The position numbers and the translations under genes were made by a program. A model generated the notes under the pieces. That model was given only the letters and a program-made list of their open reading frames with translations, searched no databases and was not told the DNA's origin. From a bacterium (GTDB taxonomy: Bacteria; Elusimicrobiota; Elusimicrobia; UBA1565; UBA9628): a stretch of 64,000 bases of DNA. Each line of letters opens with the position of its first letter. Positions within the stretch are counted from its first letter, which is position 1. Below are positions 2,227-17,671 of this stretch, in pieces. The stretch is taken from positions 13,472-77,471 of the forward strand of contig JAJZAK010000007.1 of NCBI GenBank assembly GCA_021799485.1. Reading direction: 5' to 3'.

Positions 2227-3087
2227 TTACGTCGGCAGCAGCTTGAGGGCGGCGCGGGCGACGGCGGGAACGAAGGCGGGGCGCAGGAGACGCTTGTCGT
2301 AGGGGGCGAGACGCTTTTCATTCTCCGAGAGGCAAAGTTCGACGAAGGCCCGCGGCGAGAAGTCGCCGAAGGACTTGTGGGCGTTCATCGTGAAATTATC
2401 CTGGGTGCCGGCGTTCTTTCCCACCTTGAGGGCGGTCTTCAAGCGGCTCACGGCCTGGAGCCACATCGCAAGGCCTCTGCGAAAGACGTAGCCTGGACGG
2501 CCGGCATAAGGGAGCTTCGCCTGATTGTAGGCGACCCAGTTGACGTGAAAGATGATATGCCGCCCCTCCTCCTGCATGATGGGCTCGAAAAGCGTCACGA
2601 GCTCCGGCGGGAAAAAACCGGAATCCCGAGCGAGCGCGAAGAGGCCGAAGGCGAAGAAGGAGTCGAAGCACTCCCCGTAGCCGATGCGCATGAAGGCCCA
2701 GTTGGGGTCTCGGGGCGCCGCGGGATTAAACGACGGCACGGGGATGCCGTATTTTTGGGTAAGAAGCTTCAAGATTCGGGCGTGGCGGGACTCCTCATAA
2801 CCCTGGAGCTTGATGGCATCGGAGAGGATCGGATCCTTTTCGGCCTCTCCCATCGTCGTCACCGCGAGCGCCGTCTCGGCCTCGGTCTTCACAGCCTCCT
2901 CCCAGATGGGGAGCGCCTTCAGCCGCTGCCGGGCATCGGAGCCGAGGTCCGGCCAGGAGAGCGTTTCGGGCTCATAAGGGTCGTGGGTCTCGACAAAGAA
3001 ACGGCAGAGGATCTCCTTATGTTTCGTGGAGCCGATGAAGCTGTCGGGGGCGCCGCCGGGCGCCTGGGGGTGCGTTGACGTTTTCAT
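2227..3087 (-). CDS. Ferritin-like di-iron carboxylate protein (oxygenase/desaturase-like)
   Basis: Two ExxH motifs are embedded in EESRH and EEGRH, each preceded by a helix with a conserved Glu (WEEAVKTEAE; GYGECFDSFF). This is the E / ExxH / E / ExxH ligand pattern of di-iron four-helix-bundle enzymes. The start was moved to ATG 3087 (MKTSTHPQ) because the 14 upstream codons of the track ORF are AT-rich and contain a promoter-like element. Confidence 0.7.
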   Translation of the reverse strand: MKTSTHPQAPGGAPDSFIGSTKHKEILCRFFVETHDPYEPETLSWPDLGSDARQRLKALPIWEEAVKTEAETALAVTTMGEAEKDPILSDAIKLQGYEESRHARILKLLTQKYGIPVPSFNPAAPRDPNWAFMRIGYGECFDSFFAFGLFALARDSGFFPPELVTLFEPIMQEEGRHIIFHVNWVAYNQAKLPYAGRPGYVFRRGLAMWLQAVSRLKTALKVGKNAGTQDNFTMNAHKSFGDFSPRAFVELCLSENEKRLAPYDKRLLRPAFVPAVARAALKLLPT

Positions 3088-3097
3088 AGGACGCGAC

Positions 3098-3125
3098 AAT
3101 ATAGTAAATTCAATGATAATGTCAA
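3098..3125 (-). promoter_or_regulatory. Sigma70-like promoter for the di-iron gene: TTGACA-N16-TATATT, only 10 nt from the ATG (near-leaderless)
   Basis: The minus strand reads ggTTGACAttatcattgaatttacTATATTgtcgcgtcctATG. The -35 box is at 3125-3120, the -10 box at 3103-3098 and the ATG at 3087. No SD is present. The call is from consensus matching only. Confidence 0.45.
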
Positions 3126-4102
3126 CCATGAATATGAACGGCGATTTTCACGGGAAAGGGCTCTGGGCCGTGATCCTGGGGGGTTCCTCGGGTTTTGGCC
3201 TTGCGACCGCCAAGCGCCTGGCTCGTGCGGGGCTCCATATCATGGTGGCCCACAAGGATAAGGAAGGCGTGGTCGAGACCCAGATCAAGCCCCATTTCGA
3301 GGCCATCCGGCAGACGGGCGTCAAGTTCGTCGCCCACAACGTGAATCTCTTCGACGACGATGACCGGGCCGGAGTCATGGAGTCCATTGAGGAGCAGGCC
3401 GGCCGCGGCAAGGTCCATCTCTTCCTCCACTCGATCGCGGCGGGGGCCTGCAAGCTCCTCGCGGAGCCCAAGGGGCCCGATTTCCGCGCGGACGCGATCA
3501 AAGGGCTTCAGGAAGCGCTGACTTTCGGAGGCGCCGCCGTGACCATTACGCAGCTCCGCGACGCCGTCAACAAGGCTTTCCATGAGAAGCGTTGCGACGC
3601 GCTCTACACCGTCGCCGACAGCAAGATCCCTTACAAAGACGATTTGCTCGAGGAAGAAGACGTCAGCCGCACGGTTTGGATGATGGGTTATGACTATCTC
3701 CTCTGGGGCCGGGAGCTTCTGGCGCGGGAGCTGCTGTCTCCCGAAGCCCGGCTCGTGGCCCTCACCTCCGAGGGCAACGAGATCGCATGGCGGGGCTATG
3801 CGGCCGTCTCCGCCGCCAAGTGCGCGCTCGAGGCCTCCTGTCGGGCGATGGCCCTTGAAATGGGGCCCTATGGGGTGAGGTCCTACATTGTCCAGGCGGG
3901 CATCACCGACACTCCCGCCGGCAACGCGATTCCGCATTTCGACCTCATGATGGCCCAAGCGCGGATGCGCAACCCCTTTCATCGGCTCACGACCCCGGAG
4001 GACGTGGCCGAGGCGATCTACGCCCTCTGCCTGCCGCCGCTCTCCTGGTCCAGCGGCTCCATCATCCGCGTCGACGGCGGCGAGGCGATCTCCGGACTCT
4101 AA
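3113..4102 (+). CDS. Enoyl-ACP/CoA reductase, FabV/TER-like SDR (short form)
   Basis: The glycine motif ILGGSSGFGLATAKRLA resembles FabV GASSGYGLA. HLFLHSIAAG resembles FabV LVVYSLASP. TVWMMGYDYLLWGRELL..IAWRGYAAVSAAKCALE resembles FabV TVTVMGGQDWELWINAL..YWDGALGKAK, with the Tyr/Lys pair retained. The protein ends with SGSIIRVDGGEAI. The start is ambiguous among ATGs at 3113, 3119, 3128 and 3134. I chose 3113 because it sits ~7 nt after a TATAGT box. Confidence 0.65.
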   Translation: MIMSTMNMNGDFHGKGLWAVILGGSSGFGLATAKRLARAGLHIMVAHKDKEGVVETQIKPHFEAIRQTGVKFVAHNVNLFDDDDRAGVMESIEEQAGRGKVHLFLHSIAAGACKLLAEPKGPDFRADAIKGLQEALTFGGAAVTITQLRDAVNKAFHEKRCDALYTVADSKIPYKDDLLEEEDVSRTVWMMGYDYLLWGRELLARELLSPEARLVALTSEGNEIAWRGYAAVSAAKCALEASCRAMALEMGPYGVRSYIVQAGITDTPAGNAIPHFDLMMAQARMRNPFHRLTTPEDVAEAIYALCLPPLSWSSGSIIRVDGGEAISGL

Positions 4103-4109
4103 ACCATTC

Positions 4110-5111
4110 ATGCTATCCATCCTCGGGATGGGCTGGCAGCTCCCCAAAAACGAGATATCGAACGATTTCCTCCACAAGGAAGTCGGGCTTGAACGCGGCA
4201 ATGACTGGGTGGACTCCAGGCTCGGCATCTATACGCGCTACTCGGTGCTTTCGAGGGAATACATCATCAAGACGAAGAACGCGAACCCCGTCCACGCCAT
4301 GATCCACGCGCGCTCCAACGGAGAGACTCCCGTCATCTTGGGCGTCCGGGCCGCCCGGCAAGCCTTGGACGAGGCGGGTGTCAAGCCCGAGAAGATCGGC
4401 TGGGTGATCGCGAACAACGACACTCCCTTCGAGACGATCCCCAGCACCGCGAGCTTGATCGCCAAGGCTCTGGGCGTCGGCTCCGGGCCTCATTGCGACA
4501 TGAACGCCGCCTGCTCGAGCTTCGCCCGCCACATGAAGGCGGTCGCGGACATCAAGGAGGAAAAGCTGCCGGAATTCGTTCTCTGCGTCCAGACGAGTTG
4601 CTACACGGTCCGCACCGACTATTCCCCCTCCTCGATCGACGGCTATATCTGGGGCGACGGCGCCTCGGCCGAGATCTTGTCCGCTCGGCATGAAGGCCCC
4701 CTCGCCATCGAGCCCATGATCTACGAAAGCGACCCTTCGGGGGCGGAGCAAATCATGATCGACTCGACGGGGCATTTCGTCCAGGACGGGGCGGCGGTGC
4801 GCGAGTTCTCTATCCGAAAGACCTGCGAGATGTTCGAGGAAATGGCCCAGAAGAAGGGACTCTACGCCGAGGACGTCTACACCGTGGCGCACCAGGCGAA
4901 CTTCGTGATGCAGAACTCCATCATCGGCCATCTGGGCCTGCCCGCTGAAAGGCATTTGCGCAACGTTCAGAGGCAGGGCAATATCGCCGCCGCCGGGGCG
5001 CCGTCCGTCATCGCCCAGAACAAAGGCCGATTTCACAAGGGCGACAAAATTCTCTACGCCGTTCTGGGTTCGGGGCTCGCCTGGGGCGGCGGCTGCATGG
5101 AGGCTCTCTGA
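4110..5111 (+). CDS. 3-oxoacyl-ACP synthase III (FabH-like KAS III)
   Basis: The Cys-His-Asn triad is in the expected contexts: MNAACSSFARH, VAHQANFVM and RQGNIAAAGAP. Length is 333 aa. Confidence 0.85.
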   Translation: MLSILGMGWQLPKNEISNDFLHKEVGLERGNDWVDSRLGIYTRYSVLSREYIIKTKNANPVHAMIHARSNGETPVILGVRAARQALDEAGVKPEKIGWVIANNDTPFETIPSTASLIAKALGVGSGPHCDMNAACSSFARHMKAVADIKEEKLPEFVLCVQTSCYTVRTDYSPSSIDGYIWGDGASAEILSARHEGPLAIEPMIYESDPSGAEQIMIDSTGHFVQDGAAVREFSIRKTCEMFEEMAQKKGLYAEDVYTVAHQANFVMQNSIIGHLGLPAERHLRNVQRQGNIAAAGAPSVIAQNKGRFHKGDKILYAVLGSGLAWGGGCMEAL

Positions 5112-5839
5112 TGGCGAAAGACGTCGCTGTCGTGACAGGCGCCTCGGGCGGCATCGGGAAGGCGATCGCCCGGATGATCCACGAGAAATCCAACGGCGAA
5201 CTTCAGATCTGTCTGCATTGCCGCGGCAACAAGTCCTCCGCCGAAGAACTTCAAAGGGAAATCCCGGGCTCCTTTGTCGTCCAGGCGGATCTCGCGACGA
5301 CGGAGGGCCGCCGCATGCTTTTGGAGGCGGCGGCTGGAAAGGGCCATCCTTTCGTTCTGGTCAACAATGCCGGCGTGGACAAGCCGCATGAGCCCGCGCT
5401 CATGATCCAGGAATCATCCTTCGACGAGATCCTGGGCGCCAACCTGAAGAGCGCCGCGTTTTTAATGCGGGATTTCGGCAAGGAGATGGCCGGCGCGGGA
5501 GCGGGCGTCATCGTCAACATGAGCTCGGTTTTGGCCGGCAAGGCCCTGATCGGGTCGGCCCTCTACCGGGCGAGCAAGGCGGCGATCGAGGCCTTGACGA
5601 AGCAGTTCGCCTTCGAGCTCGGCCCCAAGGGGGTGCGCGTCAACGCCGTGGCGCCGGGCTTCATTGAGACGCCCATGACGCGGGGAATCCCGCCGGAGAT
5701 GCGCGATAAGATTCGCTCGGAGACGGCCCTCGGCGCCTTCGGCGCCCCGGAGGCCGTCGCCCAGGCCGTCTGTCATTTGATTGAGAACGACTATATCAAC
5801 GGCGCCGTGCTGCCCGTCAACGGAGGCATGTCCCTGTAA
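5111..5839 (+). CDS. 3-oxoacyl-ACP reductase (FabG-like SDR)
   Basis: It has VVTGASGGIGKAIA (TGxxxGIG), NNAG, the YRASKAA (YxxxK) motif and a C-terminal NGAVLPVNGG. Its start overlaps the KAS III stop (TGATG at 5109-5113). Confidence 0.85.
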   Translation: MAKDVAVVTGASGGIGKAIARMIHEKSNGELQICLHCRGNKSSAEELQREIPGSFVVQADLATTEGRRMLLEAAAGKGHPFVLVNNAGVDKPHEPALMIQESSFDEILGANLKSAAFLMRDFGKEMAGAGAGVIVNMSSVLAGKALIGSALYRASKAAIEALTKQFAFELGPKGVRVNAVAPGFIETPMTRGIPPEMRDKIRSETALGAFGAPEAVAQAVCHLIENDYINGAVLPVNGGMSL

Positions 5840-6321
5840 TGGCCCTGACAGCGTCCGAAATCCTCAAGCTCGTTCCCCAGCAGCGCCCCATGCGCTTCAT
5901 CGACGCGATCGAGGAGGTCGATGACGAGCACATCACGGCGACCTACACGTGGAAAGACGAGGACTGCGCGGGGCACTTCCCGGGAAATCCCGTGGTCCCC
6001 GGCGTCAAATTGATCGAGATGGCGGCCCAGGTGGGCAACGTCGCCTGGGGCATCTACCATCTTTCCCTTGATCGTCCCGTCGAAGTTCTCTCCGGGCTTT
6101 TGGGCGTTTTCGCCGGGGTCGAGGAAGGAAGCTTCAAGCGCGTGGTGCGCCCTGGAGAGAAGGTCAGGGCCACGGCCTATTTCAACGACGAAGGATATTT
6201 TCGCAACAACAAAATCATGGCGTTGGTCGAGATCGCCTTCGCCGGCGGCGCCAAGGACGGAGAGATCGTTTTTACTGGAAAAACTTCGGGAATGTGGGTC
6301 CCTAAAGAGGAAGTGGAATGA
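5839..6321 (+). CDS. 3-hydroxyacyl-ACP dehydratase (FabZ/FabA-like hotdog fold)
   Basis: It has LVPQQRPMRFIDAI and the catalytic-His motif GHFPGNPVVPGVKLIEMAAQ. Length is 160 aa. The junction with the preceding gene is a TAATG overlap. Confidence 0.8.
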   Translation: MALTASEILKLVPQQRPMRFIDAIEEVDDEHITATYTWKDEDCAGHFPGNPVVPGVKLIEMAAQVGNVAWGIYHLSLDRPVEVLSGLLGVFAGVEEGSFKRVVRPGEKVRATAYFNDEGYFRNNKIMALVEIAFAGGAKDGEIVFTGKTSGMWVPKEEVE

Positions 6322-7637
6322 ATCGAAAAAGAGTCGTCGTCACCGGCCTGGGCGTGGTCGCCCCCAACGGCGTTGGCCTCGCCGCATTCCGGGAAGCCCT
6401 GAAAGCGGGCAAATCCGGCATCACGCAGCATGAAGAGTTGAAGCGCCTCAATTTCGCGGCGCAGATCGGCGGGACGCCGCCCGTCGGAGAGGAGGAGGCT
6501 CTTGCCGTTATCCCGGAAAGCGAGATCCATAAGCTCTCCGAGGCCATGATCTACGCGGTCATGGCATCCCTTGAGTGCGCGAAGTCCGCGGGACTTCCGG
6601 TTGACGTGGCGGCCGGCCTCAAGGACGGCGCCGTCGACTGGAACGCCGGGGCGGTGATCGGCTGCGGGATCGGCGGCATGGACACGATCTTCGAGCAGAT
6701 GGTCGCGGTCATTCGGGAGGCTCCGACGGCGGACGCGGGGCGCGGAATGGTGGACATGGGGACGAACATCGTTCCGCAGGTGATGGGATCGAGCGTCAGC
6801 GTCGCGGTGGGCCGCTTTCTGGGCGTGGGCGGACAGACCTCGACCAACAGTTCCGCATGCAACACCGGGACCGAGGCGATTTTCGAGGGCTATAAGCACC
6901 TGCAGTTGGGCTACGCGGACGCGATGTATGTCGGCGGAGCCGAAGGAAGCCACTACGCCATCTGGGCTGGGTTTGACGCCATGCGCGACGTGCTCTGCTC
7001 GCGCTACAACGACGCCCCCGAGAAAGGCTCCCAACCCTTGGGGGCCGGCGCCTGCGGCTTCGTTCCCAGCTCGGGGGCCGGAGTGCTGCGGATTGAGACA
7101 CTGGAATCCGCCCAAAAGCGCGGCGCCAAGATTCTCTGCGAGCTGGTCGCCGCCTATTGCAACTCGGGCGGCCAGCGCAACGGCGGGACGATGACCTTCC
7201 CCAATCAGGAGGGCGTCGTGCGCTGCATCCAGCGGGTTCTCCAAGACTCGGGGATCGATCCGGCGCGCATCTCCCTCATCAACGGCCACCTGACTTCGAC
7301 CACCGCCGACCCTCGGGAAGTCGAGAGCTGGCTGAAGGCCCTGGGGCTTGAGCCCGCGCATTTCCCGCTCATCCAGGCGACGAAGTCCATGATCGGACAT
7401 TCGCTCGGCGCCGCAGGGGCGATCGAGTCCATCGCCGTCGTCGACCAGATCGTCAACGGCTACGTCCATCCTTCGATCAACTGCGACGAGGTCCATCCCA
7501 ACATCCAGAAGCTGGGCGTGGCGAATTCGATCCCGCACCGGCTCCTTGAGCGCCGGCTTGATTATGTGATCAAGGCCTCCTTCGGCTTCGGCGATGTGAA
7601 CGGTTGCCTCTTGTTTAAGCGATGGGATGGTAGGTAA
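6318..7637 (+). CDS. Beta-ketoacyl-ACP synthase (KAS I/II, FabF/FabB-like)
   Basis: It has RVVVTGLGVVAPNG, the active-site Cys in NSSACNTGTEAI, and two His residues in INGHLTSTTADP and KSMIGHSLGAAGAIE. It has an ATGA overlap with the dehydratase gene. Confidence 0.85.
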   Translation: MNRKRVVVTGLGVVAPNGVGLAAFREALKAGKSGITQHEELKRLNFAAQIGGTPPVGEEEALAVIPESEIHKLSEAMIYAVMASLECAKSAGLPVDVAAGLKDGAVDWNAGAVIGCGIGGMDTIFEQMVAVIREAPTADAGRGMVDMGTNIVPQVMGSSVSVAVGRFLGVGGQTSTNSSACNTGTEAIFEGYKHLQLGYADAMYVGGAEGSHYAIWAGFDAMRDVLCSRYNDAPEKGSQPLGAGACGFVPSSGAGVLRIETLESAQKRGAKILCELVAAYCNSGGQRNGGTMTFPNQEGVVRCIQRVLQDSGIDPARISLINGHLTSTTADPREVESWLKALGLEPAHFPLIQATKSMIGHSLGAAGAIESIAVVDQIVNGYVHPSINCDEVHPNIQKLGVANSIPHRLLERRLDYVIKASFGFGDVNGCLLFKRWDGR

Positions 7638-7727
7638 AATATAAACTCTCGGCCTTCAGTTTTCGAAAGGCGAATGAAGATTTGTGAAGATGAACGCTGA
7701 TAAGAATTCTTAAGGAGGTTTCCCAAG

Positions 7728-8630
7728 ATGGCATTTAAGCGTCGCGAGGCTCCAACGGTCGAGGCAGTCGACCTGAACACGATTTCCCCCAAGGATGCGG
7801 AAACTCGCATCATCCAAGGGGTCAAGAAGTACGCCACTAACGAGGCCAACTGGTCCAAAGCCGACGCGAACACGCCTTTTTTGGGCTCGATCATCGGCAT
7901 GGGGATCGAATCGAGCAACCTCGCGGATGTGACGATGTCGATCGAGCGCCAGTTCCTCACCCGCAAGACGAACCGCGTTCCGGTCAACGGCGGCTCCGAG
8001 TTCAGGCTTGAGGATGGGGAGCTGGGGAAGCTGCGCATCCTCGACGGGCAGGACGCCACCGCCGCGACGCCGGGACTCTCGGTCAAGATGCTCATGGATT
8101 TAGGCCACATGCCCAAGGATGCCGGCTACCTGGCGGGCGTCGTGTCCTACGCCTATATCGTCGCGGTCGGCGACGGCTACCGCATGAACGACGGCCTCAA
8201 GAAGGCCATGGAGAAAGTGGGGCGCCTCTCAGGGGGCGAACGCGATGAGGCCCTCGCCAATCTCCGGGCCCTCGTCGTCAAGGCGCGCGAATACGTGGCC
8301 TTGCTGGGAGACGTTAAGGCCCTGGCCGAGAACCGCAGGAAGACATACGATAACGACAGGCAGACGGTCGACAATCTGCGCCAAGAGCTGTCCATGATCG
8401 GCGAAAAGCTCAAGGGGGCGACGGCGTCCGGGGATTCCGGCCAAGTCGCGGCGTTGCGCTCCGAGGAAACGAGCGTCCGCTCCCGCCTCAAGATGGGCGA
8501 GCAGCGCTATAAAATCTCGGAGCAAGTGGTCGCCGAGTCGGCCAGCCGCAAGGACGTCGAGGAAGCCAAGGTGCGCGAGATCTCGGCTCTCCTCTCGCGG
8601 ACGATCGCAGACGCCCAGCGCGTCGCCTAG
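7728..8630 (+). CDS. Hypothetical protein: putative atypical acyl-carrier-like N-terminal domain plus a ~170-aa coiled-coil/amphipathic C-terminal domain
   Basis: It has the only strong SD in the cluster (AAGGAGG at 7712-7718, 9 nt before the ATG) and follows a 90-nt AT-rich gap. Residues 59-76 (GIESSNLADVTMSIERQF) align with E. coli AcpP GADSLDTVELVMALEEEF, placing Ser62 on the phosphopantetheine Ser36. A helix-I-like AETRIIQGVKKYA lies ~35 residues upstream. The C-terminal region is rich in heptad-like charged repeats. The carrier assignment is inference. Confidence 0.6.
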   Translation: MAFKRREAPTVEAVDLNTISPKDAETRIIQGVKKYATNEANWSKADANTPFLGSIIGMGIESSNLADVTMSIERQFLTRKTNRVPVNGGSEFRLEDGELGKLRILDGQDATAATPGLSVKMLMDLGHMPKDAGYLAGVVSYAYIVAVGDGYRMNDGLKKAMEKVGRLSGGERDEALANLRALVVKAREYVALLGDVKALAENRRKTYDNDRQTVDNLRQELSMIGEKLKGATASGDSGQVAALRSEETSVRSRLKMGEQRYKISEQVVAESASRKDVEEAKVREISALLSRTIADAQRVA

Positions 8631-8646: not shown

Positions 8647-10044
8647 GTGCTCAGCGACGTCGATGTCCGGTCGCTCCGGTTGCAGGAAAGTCTGAGCGCC
8701 TGGGCCCGCTGGCCGATCTACCTATTTCTCTTCGTCTCGTTGCGATTCTATCACCGTTACCGCTTTGATGGCATCGAGGAGTTTCGGCGGTCCCTCTGGC
8801 AGAAACTCGACAAGCACCATGGCCCTATTATCTGGGCCGCTAACCATCTGACTCTCATCGACTCCTTTCTGATCTTCTGGGCCCTGGTTCCTCCGGGCCG
8901 AATATCCCGCACCAAGATCATCCCTTGGTCCACTCCCGAATATCGCAACTATTATCATCTGGGAGGCCCTATCTATAAGCGATTCATCCGGTTCCTGATG
9001 TACGCGTGCCGCTGCATCCCCTTCCTGCGCGGGGGCGACGACGAGGTTTCGGTTCAATGGCGCGAGAACGTCTACCAGAAATGCCGCTGGATACTGCTTA
9101 ACGGGGGCTCGGTTTTCATCTTCCCGGAAGCCGGCCGCTCGAAAAACGGCTGGTTCGACCCTCACCGCCCCAAGGATCTGCTGGGAAGGCTCGCTCAGGA
9201 GGTGCCCGGCGTCAAGTTTTTGTGCGTCTATCTCAGGGGCGAGGGGCAGATCCTGCGTTCCATTTACCCGCGCCAGGGCGAGCGATTCCGCATGGTCGGC
9301 GATCTCATCGACGGGATCGTCCCCGGCGAGACGAGTCCGCGCATGACGAGCCAAAGGCTTTTCAACCGCCTGGCCGAGCTTCAAAACGATTGGTTTGCCG
9401 GAAGCGGGCTCGCGAAGAACTGCGCGGGCAACGACGTCATCGATCTTGCCTCCCCCCACGCCAGGGACATTTTCCCGCCGGACGGCGACCCGGAGACGAT
9501 CGAGGAGGTCTTCTCGCGGCGGTTGACGGCAAAGGAAACGGCCTACCTCTCTGAATTTTCGGGGGAGGAGCGCTACCGGACTTTCTGGAAATTCATCGCC
9601 GCCAAGGAGGCCGCCATGAAAGCGCTCGCGCAAAGCGGCGTCATGTGCAATTTCAAGGATCTCGAAGCCGACCTGTTCCGTCGGCGCATCGTCCATCTTC
9701 CCACCGCCTGCGAAATGGATATCGCCCTGACGGTGGACGACCCCGAGAAAGTCCATGCGATCTGCGTCCTGCGCGGGGGTTACGTGGGCGACGACCAGCA
9801 CCCCGGGGATGTGCTTTGGGAAGTCCAGCAAGTCCCCGACGGCATTTCCCCCTCCGAGTTCGCCCGAGAGCGCTGCCTGGCCTTCATCGCGGCTTCCTCC
9901 GACGATATCCGCACGCCGGACGTCCTCGCGATGACCGACGACGGCGGCATTCCCAAGGTCCTTCGCAATGGACGCGTCTGCGATTGGGGCGTCTCCCTCT
10001 CGCATTCAGGGCGTTTCGCCGCGTATAGCTTCATGGTGTCATGA
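8647..10044 (+). CDS. Fusion protein: PlsC/LPLAT-type acyltransferase (N-terminal) plus 4'-phosphopantetheinyl transferase (C-terminal)
   Basis: The N-terminal half has acyltransferase motif I NHLTLID (H67-x4-D72) and motif III FIFPEAGRS (158-165). The C-terminal half has PPTase motifs GNDVIDL (261-267), FWKFIAAKEAAMKAL (WxxKEAxxK) and GVSLSHSGRFAAYSF. It starts with GTG and ends in an ATGA overlap with the next gene. Confidence 0.75.
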   Translation: MLSDVDVRSLRLQESLSAWARWPIYLFLFVSLRFYHRYRFDGIEEFRRSLWQKLDKHHGPIIWAANHLTLIDSFLIFWALVPPGRISRTKIIPWSTPEYRNYYHLGGPIYKRFIRFLMYACRCIPFLRGGDDEVSVQWRENVYQKCRWILLNGGSVFIFPEAGRSKNGWFDPHRPKDLLGRLAQEVPGVKFLCVYLRGEGQILRSIYPRQGERFRMVGDLIDGIVPGETSPRMTSQRLFNRLAELQNDWFAGSGLAKNCAGNDVIDLASPHARDIFPPDGDPETIEEVFSRRLTAKETAYLSEFSGEERYRTFWKFIAAKEAAMKALAQSGVMCNFKDLEADLFRRRIVHLPTACEMDIALTVDDPEKVHAICVLRGGYVGDDQHPGDVLWEVQQVPDGISPSEFARERCLAFIAASSDDIRTPDVLAMTDDGGIPKVLRNGRVCDWGVSLSHSGRFAAYSFMVS

Positions 10045-11006
10045 GCAAGCCCATGGGCGTCTGCGTCCTTTTCGCCGGCCAGTCGGTTCAGGAAAGCGGC
10101 ATGTGCCGCGAGCTCTGGGCATATCCCGCCGCGCGCGATATTTTAAAACGCCTGGCGCCGTCTCTCGGGGAGGACCTCGAACGGATCACGACCGAGATGC
10201 CTGATCCGGAGCTGGCGCTCACCTTCAACGCCCAGCGGGCGATTCACGCCCATCACCTGGGGCACTGGTTCGCCTTGAGGGCCGCCCATCCCGAGATCGT
10301 CCTCGAGGGAGCGCTGGGACACTCGATGGGGATCGTCGCGGCTCTCGTCGCCGCCGGGGCGATGTCCGTGGAGGATTCGGGGATCTTCATCCGCGCGCGA
10401 GCCCAGGCTTTTTCCGACGTTTGCAAGGGCTTTTCGGAGCCGATGGGCCTTGCCGCGATCTCGGCTGAGTTCTTCGAGGATGTCTCCGCGAGGCTTTCGG
10501 AGTTTCCGGGAGTGTCCATGGCCCTTCATAACACGATCGGCCGCGGTGTCGCCGGCGGGACTTTGCGCGCGATCGAAGATTTCGCCAGGAGGGCCCAGGA
10601 AGATGGATGGGAGGCGAAAATCAAGCTCCTGAAGGTCGAGGGCCCCTACCACACATCGGCCTTCGCCCCGGCTCGCGCCCCTCTGCGCAAGGCCCTGGAC
10701 CGAATCGAAATTCGAAAGCCTCAAGTCCCCGTGTTCATGGGAACATCCGGGAAGCTTGAAGAGGACCCCGGGCGCATTCGCGAGCTTCTCGTTGCTCAGG
10801 CGGATTCTCCGGAGCTCTACTTCCAGGCCGTCTGGGAGGCCTATGATCACGGCATGAGACGCTTTCTGGAGGCCGCCTACAAGCCCCAGCCAGTGACCTG
10901 GATGGGGGAGCAGCTTCTTGATGAGGATGGAAAGCTGATGCCCGGGGTCGTGCCGATCGCCATCAAGACATCGGATCTCGGAGCGGCGCTCTCCGTCGGG
11001 GCGTAA
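10041..11006 (+). CDS. ACP S-malonyltransferase (FabD-like)
   Basis: It has VLFAGQSVQ (FAGQGSQ-like), the nucleophile elbow GHSMGIVAAL, a conserved Arg in FIRARAQAF, and KVEGPYHTSAF (the xVSxxFH-like His). Confidence 0.8.
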   Translation: MSKPMGVCVLFAGQSVQESGMCRELWAYPAARDILKRLAPSLGEDLERITTEMPDPELALTFNAQRAIHAHHLGHWFALRAAHPEIVLEGALGHSMGIVAALVAAGAMSVEDSGIFIRARAQAFSDVCKGFSEPMGLAAISAEFFEDVSARLSEFPGVSMALHNTIGRGVAGGTLRAIEDFARRAQEDGWEAKIKLLKVEGPYHTSAFAPARAPLRKALDRIEIRKPQVPVFMGTSGKLEEDPGRIRELLVAQADSPELYFQAVWEAYDHGMRRFLEAAYKPQPVTWMGEQLLDEDGKLMPGVVPIAIKTSDLGAALSVGA

Positions 11007-11007
11007 T

Positions 11008-11634
11008 TCAGGGCAAGACGGACGTTCTCTCGGCGCACTTGTTGCAGCGTCCGCACGGGCGGCCCCGCACGGGGGCTAAGCAGGAGAACGCGAGTCCCAG
11101 CCACGAGGGCATCGGGAATCGACGAAGAATCTCCCTCTTGGAAAGAGTTCGATAAGGCGCCAAGACCTTGAAGGGCATGCCGAATGCCGATGCGATGGCG
11201 TGCTCCATGGATCTCAAGAACGCCGGTCGGGCGTCCGGAAAGGGGTTTCCTTTTAGGATGCCGATGGCGGCCGCGGGGATGCTCCGCGCGGCGCAATAAA
11301 GTCCTGCTTGCGCCAAAAGAACAAGGTTGCGTCCCGGCAGGAAGACGCTGGAAGCCGCGCTGCGCCGTCCGGGGACCGCCTTGCCAGAGAGGCTCCAGTG
11401 CCTCTTTCCTAAAAATCCGGAAACGGCCGCCCGGGATACCTCAAGCGGGCGCAAGCGCGGATGGGCGGCGGCTTTCAACATCCGGCGCAAGCGGCGCAGT
11501 TCGGCCGCCTCCCAACGGAGCCCGCAGCGCACATAGAGCGGATGAACCGCAAAGCCCAGTCGAAGGAAATCCGCCGTCAAAACGGCGCTGTCGACGCCGC
11601 CGCTGGCTAGAACGCAAACCGTTCGGACTTTAAT
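11008..11634 (-). CDS. queC: QueC-like PP-loop ATPase (7-cyano-7-deazaguanine synthase family), probable non-canonical ATT start
   Basis: The track ORF (TTG at 11580) lacks the P-loop. The same frame continues upstream as IKVRTVCVLASGGVDSAVL, which carries the SGGxDS motif, with no ATG/GTG/TTG before it. Other family features are FLPGRNLVLL, NPFPDARPAF and the C-terminal Zn cluster C..CGRCNKCAER. The ATT at 11634-11632 overlaps the TAA of the upstream gene (cATTAAa). Confidence 0.6.
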   Translation of the reverse strand: MKVRTVCVLASGGVDSAVLTADFLRLGFAVHPLYVRCGLRWEAAELRRLRRMLKAAAHPRLRPLEVSRAAVSGFLGKRHWSLSGKAVPGRRSAASSVFLPGRNLVLLAQAGLYCAARSIPAAAIGILKGNPFPDARPAFLRSMEHAIASAFGMPFKVLAPYRTLSKREILRRFPMPSWLGLAFSCLAPVRGRPCGRCNKCAERTSVLP

Positions 11635-12553
11635 GTGTGTGCCGGGAAACGAGCTTCCTGAGGCGCTCGACCAAGGCCTTATGGGCCAAATTTTCCTCGG
11701 GAATTTCCTCGGCCCCCGCTTCCGCTTGGGAAGGACCCGGGGCCGCTGGCTTGGGGGAGCGCGGCGGCTCGGGAGCGGGCTTGGCCGCGGCCTCCTCCTG
11801 CTGTCTCGATGAATCTTTCGGGAATCGAGAGGCGGCTCCCATCTGCGGCAAATCCTCCTCGAGCTTGCGGATGATGCCCAGGGATTTCGCGAGTTGGAGC
11901 TCCTTTTCCGTAAGCTCCAGGCTCAGCTTGTTGACGAGGCGATTGCGAATCGCGAGATCGTTTTGGGCGTCGCCGAGGCGCTTATGGAGGCTCTCCTGCT
12001 CGGCCCGCAGTTTCTCAAAGGCGACGCGCAGGGCCGCCGTCTGTTGTCCTTCCCTGGCGGCAGAGGCCTCCAAGGCCTGCGCGCGATCCTTTTCCTGAGA
12101 CAGGCTCTTCTCGAGATCCGCTATGCGGCCTTTCTCGGACTTTAAATGGGCGTCCTTTTCGATGAGACGCGCGTCCGACTCCTCGACGCGGCTTTTGAGA
12201 TTCATGATCTCAAGCTCGAGGCGGCGCAGGAGCTCCTGCTCTTCTCGCCTGTTTTCCAGCTCCTTGACGATGCGGGAGACGTGCTGAAAAAGCTTGGTGC
12301 CCGTGGCATCGATGAAGGCATTGACGTCGGTGGAGGCGGAGGATGCCGGCTTGGCGGAATTTTGCTCGTGGTCCGTGGCTCCCGCGGCCTTCAGGATCTC
12401 CGGAATTTCCGATGCCCGCCGCCAGTTCTTTTCGGCGATCTCCCCCTCGGCCGGACAGACGAGGATCGAAAGAGCGAAATCGGGCAGCCGGACAAGATCC
12501 TCCGGGGAATAGCATCCGGGAACTTCTCCGCGCAGATAGGCCCAGTATTTCAT
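11630..12553 (-). CDS. GYF_2 (DUF4339)-like N-terminal domain plus long coiled-coil protein, hypothetical
   Basis: The N-terminus is MKYWAYLRGEVPGCYSPEDLVRLPDF..NWRRASEIPEI (W-Y..G...GP-like GYF_2 pattern). The central ~170 aa are heptad-rich (LELEIMNLKSRVEESDARLIEKDAHLK...). The tail is Pro/Ala-rich. The SD is AGGAG, 6 nt before the ATG. Confidence 0.6.
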   Translation of the reverse strand: MKYWAYLRGEVPGCYSPEDLVRLPDFALSILVCPAEGEIAEKNWRRASEIPEILKAAGATDHEQNSAKPASSASTDVNAFIDATGTKLFQHVSRIVKELENRREEQELLRRLELEIMNLKSRVEESDARLIEKDAHLKSEKGRIADLEKSLSQEKDRAQALEASAAREGQQTAALRVAFEKLRAEQESLHKRLGDAQNDLAIRNRLVNKLSLELTEKELQLAKSLGIIRKLEEDLPQMGAASRFPKDSSRQQEEAAAKPAPEPPRSPKPAAPGPSQAEAGAEEIPEENLAHKALVERLRKLVSRHTH

Positions 12554-12612
12554 GGTTGTCTCCTAGAAGATAATCAAGGATAGGAAGAGGCCGTTACAAA
12601 TTCAAGTCGCAA

Positions 12613-13965
12613 TTATTTGGCGCGCGGCGGCATGGCGAGGTTCTTGAGATAGACTTCAAGGGCCTTCGCATCGCAGCGCTTTGCGAGGCAGAAGCGGGCT
12701 CTCGCCTGGTTGTCCCAGAAAGCGGGATAATCCGAAAGGACGCGTTCATAATCCGCGCTGGCGAGCTTGCGCAGCCCCAGAATGCTCTCGGCGTAGCCGC
12801 GATAGAGATAGAGGGTTGAAAGCCATGCCTGATGCTCCCTTGGCCCCCAGCCGGGCTTGCGGGCCGCAACTTTCAGGGACTCTTCCTCGCTGATCGCCTG
12901 GCGCAGCCAGCCCAGAGAGAGTTCCGTCTGATCGCGGTCGGGGCAGGATTTCGGGGCGAAGGCGCAAAGAAGAGTCAGAAGCTTCGGCTGCGACGTCTTT
13001 TCGTCCCGGGAGAAAGGAGCGAAAAACTCGCGGGCTTCATGGAAGGAGCCCGTAGAATCCTTCGTTTCGTAGAGCATCACGGATTCAAGGAACTGGAAAT
13101 AGGGGCTCTGGGGGTAGGAACGGCGAAGGACCCGGAGCATCTCGAGGGCTTTGGGAAAATCATGCTTATCCTCGATATAAATCGAGGCCAGGATGATTTG
13201 GGCCTGCTTCGAAACATAGACGGCGTGCTGGGCCGCGGTGTTGAGCAGATCGAGTCCCTTGGCCTCGTCTCCCTTGACGTCCAGAAGATGCCGGCTCAGA
13301 AAGCCCAGGAGGCCCGAGTAGCGCGAGACGTCGTATTCGAACCAGCCGAGGCCCAGCTTCGCGTCATCGTAGTCGGGATCGATATCGAGGCATTGGTGCA
13401 AATGGGCCACCGCCTTCTTGCCGGCGAAATAAGCCTTGAGCCAATGCCGTTCAAGGAGCTCCCACTGGCCGCGGGCGCCGAGAGCCATGCCGACGATAAA
13501 ATGGCCGTCGGTCTGCTCGCGAGGATCGTTGGATTCAAGAAGCGGCTTGGAGTGGGCGATGGCTTGACGGACGTCCTCCTCGAAGCGTTTGCGCAGGTCG
13601 GCGCGCCTTTTAAAAAGCCCCGCTTCGTTGGAGGCTTCCCACCAGAGGGCGCCCGCCTCGAAAAGATAGCTGAACGCCTTGTCGGGCTCGTTGCGGACGA
13701 GCATCTCAAAGGTCGCCCGGGACTGCGCGTAATCAAGGTCGTAGAGATCCTTGAAGCCTTGTTCGGAGAGTCCCAGGGCGACGGCGTCCATGCCGTAGGG
13801 GTTGGCGTTCGCATCAGGGCAAAAGAAGGCCGCGGAAGGACACAGAAAGACGCAGAAGGCCGCAAAACGCAGAAGGCCGCGGAAGGCCGCGAGGGGCCGG
13901 GAACGGCAAGAGATGCCTTTCCCAGCGGGGCCCCGTCGTTTTCCCTTGTCACTTCCAAAGCGCAT
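12613..13965 (-). CDS. Secreted all-helical TPR-like repeat protein, hypothetical
   Basis: It has a hydrophobic signal-like segment (LLRFAAFCVFLCPSAAFFCPDANA) followed by repetitive helical, Tyr/Leu/Ala-rich sequence. The start was set at the internal ATG 13965 (MRFGSDKGK) to limit overlap with the LOG gene, and is uncertain. Confidence 0.55.
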   Translation of the reverse strand: MRFGSDKGKRRGPAGKGISCRSRPLAAFRGLLRFAAFCVFLCPSAAFFCPDANANPYGMDAVALGLSEQGFKDLYDLDYAQSRATFEMLVRNEPDKAFSYLFEAGALWWEASNEAGLFKRRADLRKRFEEDVRQAIAHSKPLLESNDPREQTDGHFIVGMALGARGQWELLERHWLKAYFAGKKAVAHLHQCLDIDPDYDDAKLGLGWFEYDVSRYSGLLGFLSRHLLDVKGDEAKGLDLLNTAAQHAVYVSKQAQIILASIYIEDKHDFPKALEMLRVLRRSYPQSPYFQFLESVMLYETKDSTGSFHEAREFFAPFSRDEKTSQPKLLTLLCAFAPKSCPDRDQTELSLGWLRQAISEEESLKVAARKPGWGPREHQAWLSTLYLYRGYAESILGLRKLASADYERVLSDYPAFWDNQARARFCLAKRCDAKALEVYLKNLAMPPRAK

Positions 13966-14836
13966 AGCGATGCTCCTTCCAAAAATCCTGGATGTATTCC
14001 CAGCCATCCTCGGCCCTCTCGACGACTTTGAAAAGCCGGCGATCCTCCGGAGTGATCATGTCCTGATCGAGCAGATAGTCGAAATTCACCGCCTTCGACC
14101 AGAATTCCGTTCCGAAGAGGACGATGGGGATGGGGCGCTTCTTTCCGGTCTGTACCAGAGTGAGCGTCTCGAACAGCTCATCGAAAGTGCCGTATCCTCC
14201 CGGAAAGGCGACGAGCGCCCTCGCGCGCATGAGGAAGTGCATTTTGCGCAGAGAGAAATAATGGAAGCGAAAGGTGATCTCCGGGGTGATATAGGGATTG
14301 GGGTCCGGCTCGTGGGGAAGGGTGATCGCGAAGCCCACGCTTTTGGCGCCGCTCTCGAAGGCCCCGCGGTTGGCGGCTTCCATGGCGCCCGGCCCCCCGC
14401 CTGTCGCGATGACGAACTCAAGCTGGCGGTTGGGCGGCTGGTTCCGGGCGGCCAAGGCCGCGAAACGCCGCGCCTCCTCGTAGTATTTCGAGAGATTGAG
14501 GGCGCGCCGAGCCCGGCGAAGGGCTTTGCGCCCCTCGGGCGTTTCCGGCCGGGAGCCGAAGTCCTCGAGGACGGCGTTTAATTCTTCACGGGCCTTGGCG
14601 CGGGAGCGCAGTCGAGCGGAGCCGAAGACGACGATCGTCGAACGGATGCGGTGCTCGCGCAGGATGAGTTCGGGCTTGAGGAGCTCGAGCTGGAGCCTCA
14701 CGGGGCGAAGATCTTTTTTCTTGAGGAACTCCAGGTCCTCGTGGGCCATGACGTAGCCGTGGGCTTCCTTGATCCGGTCGATGAGAGCCTGTCGCTGCTG
14801 CGGCGAGAGCTCGTTTTTTAATAGGGAGTTCTTCAT
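13949..14836 (-). CDS. LOG family protein (TIGR00730-type, nucleotide 5'-monophosphate nucleosidase-like)
   Basis: It has TIVVFGSARL, ATGGGPGAMEAANRGA and the PGGYGTFDELFE motif. The start was set at ATG 14836, which forms an ATGA overlap with the dctM stop. Confidence 0.8.
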   Translation of the reverse strand: MKNSLLKNELSPQQRQALIDRIKEAHGYVMAHEDLEFLKKKDLRPVRLQLELLKPELILREHRIRSTIVVFGSARLRSRAKAREELNAVLEDFGSRPETPEGRKALRRARRALNLSKYYEEARRFAALAARNQPPNRQLEFVIATGGGPGAMEAANRGAFESGAKSVGFAITLPHEPDPNPYITPEITFRFHYFSLRKMHFLMRARALVAFPGGYGTFDELFETLTLVQTGKKRPIPIVLFGTEFWSKAVNFDYLLDQDMITPEDRRLFKVVERAEDGWEYIQDFWKEHRYALWK

Positions 14837-16101
14837 AAGTGAAAGAGCCGAGGCAGCCACAGGCTCAGGGCCGGAGTGTAGCTCACGACGGCAAGGAGGG
14901 AGATGAGGATGAGCCAGAAGGGAAGGCTCGCGCGGTAGAGCGTCGGCAAGGACAGGTCGAAGCGCCGGCTTGAGAGAAACAGATTCAGGCCCATGGGAGG
15001 GGTCAAATATCCGATTTCAAGATTGAGAAGGAAAAGGACCCCCAGGTGGATGGGATCGATGCCATAGTGCATCGCCACCGGCACGATGATCGGCACCATG
15101 AGGACGATCGCGGAGAAAATTTCCACCATGTTGACGAGCAATAGAAAGGCGTTGAGAAGAGCCAAAAACAAAATCTTCCCCGAGACGTGCGCGTTGAGGA
15201 AGGAAAAGAGCTTCGCGGGAGCTTGGGCGTCGATGAAATAGCTCGTCAGTCCTATCGCGCAACCCAGGACAAGAAGGATCGCCCCGACGAGCATCTGGCT
15301 TTTGAGGGCGATCGACGGGAGCGCGGAGAGCTTGATGTCTTTGTAAATGAGGACCTCGGCGACGAGAGAGTAGAAGGCCATGACGGCGGCGGCCTCGGCG
15401 GCCGTGAACTTGCCCATGTAAATCCCTCCGATCGCCAGGATAGGCATGGGGATCTCCCAGATAGAGCGCCGGAAGGCCGAACGGAGCGCGCTCCAAGAGA
15501 AAGAAGTCGCCTTGACGTCGTGTCGCGCGGAGATCCAGACGGCGTAGGCCGAAAGCGCGGCGATGAGGAGAAGAGCGGGAAGAAGAGCCGCGGCGAAAAG
15601 CCTTTCAAGGGAGACCTGAGCCACGAGGGCGTAAAGGATGATGGGCAGCGATGGAGGGAGCAGGAGGCCCAGGCTGCCGCTTGTCGTGACGAGGCCGAGG
15701 GCGAAGTCCTTGGGATAGGCCTTTTGAAGGAGAAGGGGATAGACGATGCCTCCCAGGGCGATAATCGTGACGCCCGAGGCTCCGGTGAAAGCCGTGAAAA
15801 GGGAGCAGGAAGCAAGCGCCGCGATGGCGATCCCTCCGGGGATCCAGCCGAAGGCCGCCTCGGCAAGCTCCAGGGTCCGCTGGGGCGCCTTGCTTTCGGC
15901 TAGGAGATAGCCCGCGAACGTGAACAGCGGGATCGCCGTCAGGGATGGCATGTCGGTCAGCCTTGTAAGCTCGATCGTGACGGCGGAAAGCGGCACTTGC
16001 TCCAAGTGAAAAAGAAGGAGGGCAAGCCCGCCGAGTATCGCGTAGATCGGAATCCCGGCCGCCGCCGCGACGGCCGTGCCGGCGATGAGGGCCGAGGTCA
16101 C
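14833..16101 (-). CDS. dctM: TRAP transporter large permease subunit
   Basis: 422-aa polytopic membrane protein with typical DctM composition. It has a GTGA overlap with the small permease gene. Confidence 0.85.
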   Translation of the reverse strand: MTSALIAGTAVAAAAGIPIYAILGGLALLLFHLEQVPLSAVTIELTRLTDMPSLTAIPLFTFAGYLLAESKAPQRTLELAEAAFGWIPGGIAIAALASCSLFTAFTGASGVTIIALGGIVYPLLLQKAYPKDFALGLVTTSGSLGLLLPPSLPIILYALVAQVSLERLFAAALLPALLLIAALSAYAVWISARHDVKATSFSWSALRSAFRRSIWEIPMPILAIGGIYMGKFTAAEAAAVMAFYSLVAEVLIYKDIKLSALPSIALKSQMLVGAILLVLGCAIGLTSYFIDAQAPAKLFSFLNAHVSGKILFLALLNAFLLLVNMVEIFSAIVLMVPIIVPVAMHYGIDPIHLGVLFLLNLEIGYLTPPMGLNLFLSSRRFDLSLPTLYRASLPFWLILISLLAVVSYTPALSLWLPRLFHL

Positions 16102-16628
16102 GTCTTGGTGTCGCTGGAAGGCGCCATGCGGCTTTGCCGCCCGCCAAGTTCGAGGGACTCCTCGACGGCGCGCAGCAGCGTGTGGAGGCCAACAAGCGAG
16201 AATCCGACGGGGATCACGGCGGCGAAGGTCCAGCGGGGGATGCGCAGGTTCCCAAACCCCACGAGCATTCCTCCCGAGGCGCGCTCATCCTGGAGGAATT
16301 CCCAGGCGGCGTAGGCTAGGAAGCCGCACGCGACGCAGGCGGCGATGGAGGCCGCCGCATCAAGGGACTTGCGCAGCGTGCCTTCGGGGATATGAAGGGC
16401 CTCAAAGGCGAAGTGCTTGCCCTCGGCCGCGGAGACGGCCGCGCCCAAAAAGCCGATCCAGAGCACCATATGCCGCATCAGGATATCGGCGCCCACCATG
16501 CCCACCCCGAAAAGATCGCGTAGGAGAACTCCTCCGAAGGAGAGGAGGACGAGACTGAGAAGCAGGAAAAAAAGAACCGCCGTCTCGATGGACTTAAGAA
16601 TTCCTTGGGTCCGGGAAACGGCGTTCAT
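16098..16628 (-). CDS. dctQ: TRAP transporter small permease subunit
   Basis: 176-aa protein with four hydrophobic segments, positioned between DctP and DctM. Both junctions are 4-nt overlaps. Confidence 0.8.
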   Translation of the reverse strand: MNAVSRTQGILKSIETAVLFFLLLSLVLLSFGGVLLRDLFGVGMVGADILMRHMVLWIGFLGAAVSAAEGKHFAFEALHIPEGTLRKSLDAAASIAACVACGFLAYAAWEFLQDERASGGMLVGFGNLRIPRWTFAAVIPVGFSLVGLHTLLRAVEESLELGGRQSRMAPSSDTKT

Positions 16629-17671
16629 TCTCCTCGGGAGGGCTTGGAGGGTCTTTGAGGGCCGCGTCGCCGCAGGGATTGGAGGAGAGAATCCGCTTCT
16701 TTGACGATATCGGAACTGAACAGCCCCTGGGAAACGAGAGTCTTCTGAGCCTTTTTCCCGGCAGCCTCGAAATAGGCCAGGTCGGCGGCGCTTGGGGCCT
16801 TGCCCATCTTCAGGCCGCGCGACTCAAGCGTTTTAAGAGACTGCGCGGCCTCTTGGCCCGAGAGAACGTTGAGCCGGTCGAGGTGCTTGCGCGAGAGGGA
16901 GACAAGGAGCTTCTTCTGGGCGGGCGTTAGGGAGTCGAAGAAGCGTCTGGCGATGAGAACGGCCCCTGCCGAATAGGCCACGGGCACGGGATAAATGTAG
17001 TTGGTGCGGGTGAACCATTCAAGAGCGATGACTCCCAGGGGAGGGCCGTAAACGCCGTTGACGAGGCCGGTCTCGAGCGAACTCATCACGTCGATGATGG
17101 AAAGCGGGACGGGGCTCACGTCGATCGCCCGGTAGGCGGCCTGGGCAATGGGATCGTCGACCCAAACCCACATCTTGAACTTGGAATTCTTAAGGTTCTC
17201 GGGACTTTGGACGGCATCGCGAGTGAAAAAATAGACGAAGCCGGGATCGACCCAGCCGAGGAGCACCATTCCCCCCTTTTTGAGATCGTCCGCAAGGCGG
17301 CCGGCGAGTTTTTTGCGCAGAGCGCGGATTTCTCCTTCATTTCGAAAGAGCCAAGGGCTGTCGAAAAGCCGCACTTCCGGGGCGATCGAACCGATCCCGA
17401 CGCCCGTGAATCCGGCGGCTTGAATCTCCCCGATGCGCATCTTGCGCACGACGTCCTTCTCATCGCCAGCCACGCCCCCGGGATACATCTTGAAGCGCAA
17501 AGAGCCCCCGCTGCGTTCCTGGAGCTCCTTGTTGAGTTCGTCCATGACCTTCATCCAGGTGGAGGCCTGGGGGGCGAGGGTGGCGAACTTGATATAGCGC
17601 ACGGGGCCCTCGGCCCGGGCGAGCCCCGGCAAGGCCAGAAGCGCGGCCAGAAGCGCGTTAAAAATAGTCAT
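16625..17671 (-). CDS. dctP: TRAP transporter substrate-binding protein
   Basis: It has a signal peptide (MTIFNALLAALLALPGLARA) and DctP-like sequence (IKFATLAPQASTWMKVM..RMRIGEIQAAGFTGVG). Confidence 0.8.
   Translation of the reverse strand: MTIFNALLAALLALPGLARAEGPVRYIKFATLAPQASTWMKVMDELNKELQERSGGSLRFKMYPGGVAGDEKDVVRKMRIGEIQAAGFTGVGIGSIAPEVRLFDSPWLFRNEGEIRALRKKLAGRLADDLKKGGMVLLGWVDPGFVYFFTRDAVQSPENLKNSKFKMWVWVDDPIAQAAYRAIDVSPVPLSIIDVMSSLETGLVNGVYGPPLGVIALEWFTRTNYIYPVPVAYSAGAVLIARRFFDSLTPAQKKLLVSLSRKHLDRLNVLSGQEAAQSLKTLESRGLKMGKAPSAADLAYFEAAGKKAQKTLVSQGLFSSDIVKEADSLLQSLRRRGPQRPSKPSRGE

Follow-up and report, generated by a model that had tools for sequence, protein, structure and literature searches.

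Which protein carries the growing acyl chain in a fatty acid synthase cluster that has no ordinary carrier gene? The question is raised by a 64,000-nucleotide stretch of the Elusimicrobia contig JAJZAK010000007.1 (positions 13,472 to 77,471, hereafter the window; all coordinates below are counted from its first letter). The window holds a cluster that encodes every type II fatty acid synthase (FAS) activity together with a phosphopantetheinyl transferase (PPTase), and no canonical acyl carrier protein (ACP) was found to be encoded in the 64 kb by tblastn or with an ACP profile hidden Markov model (HMM). The sole always-present cluster gene without a family assignment is an open reading frame (ORF) at 7728-8630 on the + strand, whose 300-amino-acid (aa) product we call protein X. 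We propose, with a probability of about 0.65, that protein X is the dedicated, very divergent acyl carrier of this cluster. Four independent lines of evidence lead to this reading, namely the gene context, an attachment-site pattern on an invariant serine, a colinear profile alignment with ACPs, and the coincidence of predicted helices with those of ACPs. An earlier reading of the DNA made without database searches (the sequence-only reading) had proposed a cryptic carrier in the slot where the ACP gene should be; the core of that idea is supported by the four lines, but not by standard family and fold searches. The ORF, its Shine-Dalgarno (SD) sequence and the ACP-like motif lie where that reading had placed them:

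7712-7718, + strand: SD sequence AAGGAGG, read directly, 9 nt 5′ of the ATG
7728-8630, + strand: protein X, 300 aa with an ATG start, the proposed dedicated acyl carrier of the cluster
7788-7955, + strand: residues 21-76, putative equivalent of ACP helix I, loop I and helix II (AlphaFold helices; hhalign alignment to AcpP 4-53)
7896-7943, + strand: residues 57-72, GMGIESSNLADVTMSI, match to the phosphopantetheine attachment-site pattern at all 16 positions
7911-7913, + strand: TCG codon of Ser62, the proposed phosphopantetheinylated serine, invariant and located before the predicted helix 63-75
7956-8030, + strand: residues 77-101, predicted beta-hairpin (strands 76-85 and 92-101), a lineage-variable insertion between the helix II and helix III equivalents
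8031-8111, + strand: residues 102-128, RILDGQDATAATPGLSVKMLMDLGHMP, putative equivalent of ACP loop II, helix III and helix IV (hhalign alignment to AcpP 54-74; predicted helix 115-124)
8148-8624, + strand: residues 141-299, five long helices predicted by AlphaFold, a basic region (pI 8.6-9.8)

The proposed attachment site lies in residues 59-76 of protein X, GIESSNLADVTMSIERQF, and the stretch GMGIES(S/A)NLADITMSIERQF is essentially invariant in 30 close homologues. Once the most divergent members were added to the alignment (lowest identity 26%), Ser62 was among only ten columns that were still invariant. Protein X has, at the start of its helix II equivalent, a conserved serine in a (D/E/H)-S-(L/I/S) motif. 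The PROSITE pattern (PS00012) was matched in the window protein and in 24 of the 29 close homologues aligned with it (25/30), and from the amino-acid composition of these loci chance matches are expected at 1.1e-6 per position, which makes 3e-4 for a protein of 300 residues. When six-frame ORFs comprising 1.73 million residues were scanned, 60 orthologues of protein X matched the pattern, and it was matched at four other places compared to 1.8 expected. Since protein X had been singled out by its context, the pattern match is a fair test of one candidate and not a proteome-wide trawl. The sequence-only reading had named Ser62 as the attachment site, and on the sequence evidence this choice looks sound, as the residue is invariant, fits the pattern and stands in register with the modified serine of ACPs.

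Profile alignments with hhalign point to the same residue. In every run, Ser62 was aligned with the modified serine of AcpP; the P value was 0.038 when residues 56-77 of protein X were aligned and 0.015 for residues 28-78, which include helix I. Residues 77-101, which form the predicted hairpin, are absent from four natural members of the family (P0124, P0128, P0130 and P0140), and with a hairpin-less member as master the alignment spans helix II to helix IV with a P value of 0.005. The extended pairing sets I-L-D-G-Q-D-A...T-P-G-L-x-V-K-M-L of protein X against I-P-D-E-E-A...T-V-x-x-A-I-D-Y-I of ACP. After the hairpin columns were removed, hhalign gave a P value of 0.0022, a score of 22.3 and a probability of 13%. 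For comparison, column-shuffled ACP profiles scored 10.3 ± 2.1 (maximum 16.4), none of the 120 reached 22.3, and the reversed ACP profile scored 11.3. The ACP-equivalent segments are also the best-conserved parts of protein X, with a mean pairwise identity of 86% for residues 21-76 and 88% for residues 102-128, compared to 65% for the hairpin and 53-58% for the C-terminal helices.

The full-length AlphaFold model of protein X (pLDDT 86.6, pTM 0.82) has predicted N-terminal helices at residues 21-35 and 40-44 and then a helix at 63-75, followed by the hairpin, the helix at 115-124 and a short helix at 132-135; the long helices beyond run over residues 141-166, 169-194, 196-234, 237-271 and 276-299. 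Under the hhalign alignment, whose scoring made no use of secondary structure, helices 21-35, 63-75 and 115-124 occupy the positions of ACP helices I, II and IV. The segment AETRIIQGVKKYA, previously described as helix-I-like, falls inside the predicted helix at residues 21-35, so that the model agrees with the description. The long C-terminal part had also been described as a coiled-coil tail that might act as a tether; about 170 aa of long helices are indeed predicted, but a free tail or tether is not supported, since the full model is confident as one unit. From the alignments and the model, residues ~21-128 may form a divergent ACP-like module that is built into, and then followed by, the basic five-helix region.

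Protein X belongs to a narrowly distributed family. A search of a 5.8-billion-protein collection returned 251 homologues, nearly all of 297-304 residues and 56-66% identical; the named ones are all annotated as "hypothetical protein" except for two with JGI labels, and nearly all come from Elusimicrobia metagenome-assembled genomes. Protein X is found in 69 GTDB species genomes, almost all Elusimicrobia, and the carriers include the complete 3.8-Mb genome CP096137.1, which belongs to order UBA1565 and represents a diderm aerobic heterotroph (PMC9476967). The pathway is found in one group of Elusimicrobia, to which order UBA1565 belongs, and in a few related lineages. In these genomes protein X is encoded among FAS genes, and in the window the genes around it are as follows:

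3113-4102, + strand: enoyl reductase of the short-chain dehydrogenase/reductase (SDR) type, FabL/TER-like, start probably the ATG at 3113, which gives 329 aa like its homologues
4110-5111, + strand: KASIII (FabH-like) priming synthase (Pfam)
5111-5839, + strand: FabG-like ketoreductase (Pfam)
5839-6321, + strand: FabZ/ApeI-like dehydratase (Pfam, NCBIfam)
6318-7637, + strand: elongating beta-ketoacyl synthase (KAS), KAS I/II type (PF00109, PF02801)
8647-10044, + strand: PlsC-type acyltransferase (about aa 48-250) fused to an AcpS-type PPTase (about aa 259-465) (PF01553, PF01648)
10041-11006, + strand: FabD-like malonyl transacylase, the proposed loader of the carrier (PF00698 at 1e-20; TIGR00128 at 99 bits, below its cut-off)

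The order enoyl reductase, KASIII, FabG, dehydratase, KAS, X, acyltransferase-PPTase, FabD is nearly universal across the loci, and its part from KAS through X and PPTase to FabD is kept over the 69 species genomes and the most divergent members. Protein X comes after the elongating KAS, and in every checkable locus a PPTase gene lies directly downstream of X. In the main group, the acyltransferase-PPTase fusion begins a few nucleotides past the stop codon of X or overlaps it. At four loci (L063, L065, L060 and L069), X is followed by a PPTase that stands alone, has about 190-200 residues and is a homologue of the fusion's C-terminal half, and then by FabD; the stand-alone gene overlaps the X stop codon in L063, and L069 has both this PPTase after X and a fusion on the opposite strand. 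The same gene context surrounds P0140, a protein X that is 26% identical and is encoded at L154 on a contig of 40% G+C. At four further loci (L013, L015, L018 and L020, at about 10001-13300 in each), X, the fusion and FabD alone remain together and no KAS, ketoreductase, dehydratase or enoyl reductase gene lies within 10 kb; L017 resembles this layout, with only 2.3 kb of upstream sequence there. That these three genes stay together would, if protein X is a carrier, point to the fusion and FabD as the enzymes that directly prime, load and off-load it, and we propose the 8647-10044 protein as the priming and off-loading enzyme.

A different way of off-loading is suggested at L063 (10885-14269) and L065, where the acyltransferase is replaced by a NAD_binding_4 reductase (PF07993 at 1.8e-22) and an aldehyde-decarbonylase-like protein (PF11266 at 5.7e-18), in the order X, stand-alone PPTase, FabD, NAD_binding_4 protein, PF11266 protein. 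Such an arrangement points to a possible alkane or aldehyde product in organisms other than cyanobacteria. The helical part of protein X is kept in these two lineages with soluble off-loading enzymes, and its retention where the membrane acyltransferase is missing speaks against its serving simply to tether X to that enzyme. Comparison of the loci shows that the shared core consists of the full set of FAS enzymes with X, PPTase and FabD, and that the off-loading enzymes are interchangeable. The absence of a normal ACP from the cluster, which the sequence-only reading had pointed out, extends beyond the 64 kb to the relatives: an ACP HMM, run unfiltered over 1.13 Mb around X in 73 loci and over L154, detected no canonical ACP, and no canonical ACP gene lies within 10 kb of X in any genome that has it. 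Small ORFs near FabD in L004 were considered as candidates and are not ACPs.

The Cys-His-His motifs of the KAS are legible in its translation, the PPTase motifs GND, KEAxxKA and SHSG are invariant in both the fused and the stand-alone versions, and the acyltransferase motifs HX4D and PEAGRS are nearly invariant. The fusion is one 465-residue protein with a membrane-anchored acyltransferase part; it has 178 homologues, of which all the named ones are from Elusimicrobia, and we found no precedent for it outside this group. All Fab-like proteins of the cluster score well under the NCBIfam cut-offs for canonical Fab proteins (270 bits vs 494 for fabF, 99 vs 261 for fabD, and 59-62 vs 113-155 for fabZ).

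The gap between the KAS stop codon (7637) and protein X is 90 nt with 39% G+C in a window of 63.5% G+C, while the remaining junctions of the cluster overlap or leave at most 16 nt between genes. The sequence-only reading had made a point of this AT-rich gap, which is real in the window; elsewhere a long gap was seen only in the closest relative, L005 (85 nt), and the median in 60-odd other genomes is 34 nt, where other cluster genes mostly overlap. What is conserved almost everywhere is a non-overlapping start, with a purine-rich SD-like stretch before it: AGGAG is present at 43 of 72 loci, and a GGAG/GAGG-type core was seen by eye at nearly all of those without it. The conserved SD-like stretch and the separate start fit an abundant, stoichiometric component. 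A sigma-70 promoter scan of the gap upstream of protein X gave no site on the + strand.

Several results weigh against a carrier role. The sequence-only reading had suggested a profile search against PF00550 and a Foldseek search for an ACP bundle, and neither came out in its favour. No match to PF00550 or any other carrier family was found with Pfam at E ≤ 10 in 14 diverse members, so the family has no significant match to the PF00550 profile; an NCBIfam scan of protein X gave no match, and the PDB sequences, which include hundreds of ACPs, gave none to the full protein or to N-terminal or hairpin-less profiles (phmmer/hmmsearch). When 1361 ORFs were ranked with a plain ACP HMM, protein X came no higher than 9th to 12th. 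Exhaustive profile searching of 1.8 billion cluster representatives returned 29 clusters, every one of the protein X family, and no bridging or remote relatives among them. The hhalign profile was built from seven diverse ACP sequences, and the PROSITE pattern, checked on the same seven, finds the right serine in five of them. The HH-suite probabilities are low throughout (1-13%), which means that homology is suggested but not proven. In the structural model, the loop that holds Ser62 (residues 54-63) has a pLDDT below 50, and residues 1-165 modelled alone gave a poor model (pLDDT 59), which suggests that the N-terminal part packs against the long helices and is not a free domain. When the full model was searched with Foldseek (PDB, BFVD), no ACP came up at a meaningful score and the matches were only generic helical proteins (AhlC, MakA, I-BAR and PspA) at E > 0.01 and TM < 0.3; the N-terminal model gave five matches, all at E > 5. 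One of these five, 7tgh_AB, is the only probable ACP chain, presumably the mitochondrial complex I ACP to judge from how 'AB' chains are named in other entries, and we take it as a hint at most; the other small match is 8iuf_EC. Protein X is also four times the size of an ACP, and it departs from the small size, strong acidity (pI about 4) and acidic helix II that are typical of the class: residues 1-130 have a pI of 5.4-6.6 with a net charge between 0 and -3, whole family members have a pI of 6.3-9.2, and of the acidic residues of helix II only E61, D67 and E73 are kept. Finally, a normal acpP may lie elsewhere in the genomes that carry X, and the PPTase of the cluster could be the housekeeping AcpS of the organism.

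Family assignments for the helical region were also considered and rejected. Residues 168-272 match Pfam Vps5 (PF09325) at 20.6 bits vs a cut-off of 27 (E 3.6e-4) in 1 of 14 members, and a BAR/Vps5-like domain was rejected on this sub-threshold score and on an I-BAR Foldseek match with E 0.2 and TM 0.21. Pore-forming toxins of the ClyA/AhlC type gave the best Foldseek matches, but at E 0.02-0.1, TM 0.12-0.27 and an rmsd above 19 Å, and this reading is further weakened by the hairpin being dispensable in several members. The PspA reading was rejected as its Foldseek matches are only those of generic long helices.

The negative searches, the large size and the non-acidic composition would all suit an accessory or scaffold subunit, which would bind the PPTase or the acyltransferase or organise the FAS enzymes, while the acyl chains were carried by ordinary AcpP, the PPTase was the housekeeping AcpS, and the serine motif was a coincidence or a relic. 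Long helices are typical of scaffolding proteins, and a stoichiometric complex is suggested by the overlap between the stop codon of X and the start of the next gene. A canonical acpP and acpS occur almost universally, so both are likely to be present in a diderm aerobe such as the one represented by CP096137.1. We nevertheless consider a scaffold unlikely, since it leaves unexplained an invariant serine within a full attachment-site pattern, an in-register and colinear alignment with the ACP profile, and the top conservation of the ACP-equivalent segments; L069, with both the fusion and a second PPTase after X, is also hard to account for if the PPTase is merely housekeeping. The same helices could instead belong to a lipid- or membrane-binding protein of the BAR, PspA, apolipoprotein or phasin type that receives, stores or shapes the lipid product. 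Here the weak Vps5/BAR match to residues 168-272, the Foldseek matches to I-BAR, PspA and AhlC/MakA, and a C-terminal half that is basic and partly amphipathic can be cited, but all of the matches are sub-threshold and such as any long helical protein gives, the N-terminal region and not the helices is most conserved, and both the adjacent PPTase and the serine motif are left without explanation. As a full account of protein X, lipid binding seems distinctly improbable; as a second role of the C-terminal half, it is compatible with the carrier hypothesis.

Could Ser62 be a catalytic nucleophile instead, in an enzyme for thioester hydrolysis or acyl transfer, possibly with His127 and Asp109? 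The three residues are invariant among close homologues and the cluster has no thioesterase, yet the most divergent member has tyrosine in place of His127, and Asp109 drops out of the conserved columns when divergent members join the alignment. Neither GXSXG nor any other hydrolase motif is present, no hydrolase fold or family was matched, and the mostly helical architecture is unlike that of known acyl hydrolases. We give such an enzyme very little chance. A further possibility keeps protein X as a carrier and goes beyond a dedicated role: these Elusimicrobia would have no ordinary AcpP, the cluster would be their housekeeping FAS, and X would be the sole acyl carrier. It fits with every FAS II step being encoded, with a fused acetyl-CoA carboxylase that adjoins the cluster in one lineage (a 1833-residue protein with biotin carboxylase, BCCP and carboxyltransferase parts at 13652-19153 of L154), and with the low scores of all the cluster enzymes against canonical Fab models, an effect to be expected from co-evolution with an unusual carrier. 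We hold this reading to be a rather slim prospect.

Gene order, conserved motifs, alignment statistics and predicted secondary structure are what the data show directly; for the preferred reading of protein X as the dedicated carrier of the cluster, we infer the modification of Ser62, the carrier function and any role of the helical region. The downstream PPTase would move phosphopantetheine from CoA onto Ser62, and the FabD-like enzyme would load malonyl units on the carrier. KASIII, KAS, FabG, the dehydratase and the enoyl reductase would then build a saturated acyl chain on X, which the PlsC-type acyltransferase fused to the PPTase would pass to a lipid acceptor. In the two variant genomes, a thioester reductase and an aldehyde-decarbonylase-like enzyme would take the chain instead.

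Compared with known carriers, protein X combines shared and distinct features. Like E. coli AcpP (PF00550), it has a serine in G-x-(D/E)-S beside an amphipathic helix, with a helix and a long loop before it, a conserved Phe 14 residues past the serine, and a T-x-x-hydrophobic equivalent of helix IV; its gene likewise lies among fab genes beside an elongating KAS with its own strong ribosome-binding site. Unlike AcpP (~78 aa), protein X has 300 aa and is not acidic, has ESS in place of DSL and a loop I that is 3 residues longer, carries a 25-residue beta-hairpin after helix II in most members and ~170 aa of long helices beyond, and is missed by PF00550 and by Foldseek. The AcpM protein of Mycobacterium tuberculosis offers a parallel, in that X is likewise proposed as a specialised FAS II carrier with extra sequence after helix IV. 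The AcpM extension is flexible and about 35 residues long, and AcpM is readily recognised as PF00550, whereas the extension of X consists of ~170 residues of predicted long helices that are modelled confidently with the N-terminal part. A PPTase encoded in cis or directly downstream of the carrier is also found in the alpha subunit of fungal type I FAS and in the fas-acpS operons of Corynebacterineae; in contrast to those systems, X belongs to a dissociated type II system as a protein of its own, and its PPTase is fused to a PlsC-type acyltransferase. The thioester-reductase-type enzyme and the Ald_deCOase protein (PF11266) of L063 and L065 resemble the cyanobacterial alkane pathway, in which acyl-ACP reductase (AAR) is followed by aldehyde-deformylating oxygenase, and enzymes of that type take acyl-carrier thioesters. 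The reductase of L063 and L065 differs in being of the NAD_binding_4 type (PF07993) and not AAR, and the carrier would be X and not AcpP.

To our knowledge, every phosphopantetheine carrier described so far is a small four-helix domain of the ACP type that standard profiles recognise. If the carrier reading is right, protein X would be a carrier protein that is invisible to current models, and a non-acidic carrier of four times the usual size, with an inserted hairpin and itself set within a bundle of helices, would broaden what counts as a carrier protein; PF00550-based genome mining could then miss whole FAS- or polyketide synthase (PKS)-like pathways. It would also give a function to about 250 "hypothetical proteins" and reveal a phylum-specific lipid pathway, marked by an unusual PlsC-PPTase fusion and by alkane-type output in some lineages, as well as a tractable system for how Fab enzymes recognise a non-acidic carrier. 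Should AcpP be lacking altogether, the case would be one of replacement of a near-universal protein. In the literature on fatty acid synthesis in Elusimicrobia and on unusual ACPs, we found no paper on this family, on the PlsC-PPTase fusion or on such an ACP architecture.

Some further features of these loci were noted. In the enoyl reductase at 3113-4102 (+ strand), SDR models match in two separate stretches, trans-2-enoyl-CoA reductase models match weakly, and the protein appears to hold an insertion relative to FabL and FabI. Divergently oriented beside the FAS cluster, at 2227-3129 on the - strand, is a gene for a 300-residue protein that has no Pfam or NCBIfam match and is common only to L005; its two EXXH motifs (EESRH and QEEGRH) suggest a di-iron oxygenase or desaturase. 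Kinship of this protein with the aldehyde-decarbonylase-like protein of L063 was considered and rejected, as the two have no similarity. At L069, on a high-G+C contig labelled Planctomycetota that carries the X homologue, long simple repeats of the GL/SD/PR dipeptide type occur in several frames at ~15000-15550. Just downstream of the cluster in the window, a 307-residue protein encoded at 11630-12553 (- strand) has a coiled-coil look from its translation and no family match, and it adjoins a 464-residue tetratricopeptide repeat protein encoded at 12613-14007 (- strand). Beyond these, at 14833-18524 (- strand), lies a tripartite ATP-independent periplasmic (TRAP) transporter operon (DctM, DctP and the TAtT T-component), followed by methylenetetrahydrofolate reductase and an aldo-keto reductase, all of a housekeeping kind.

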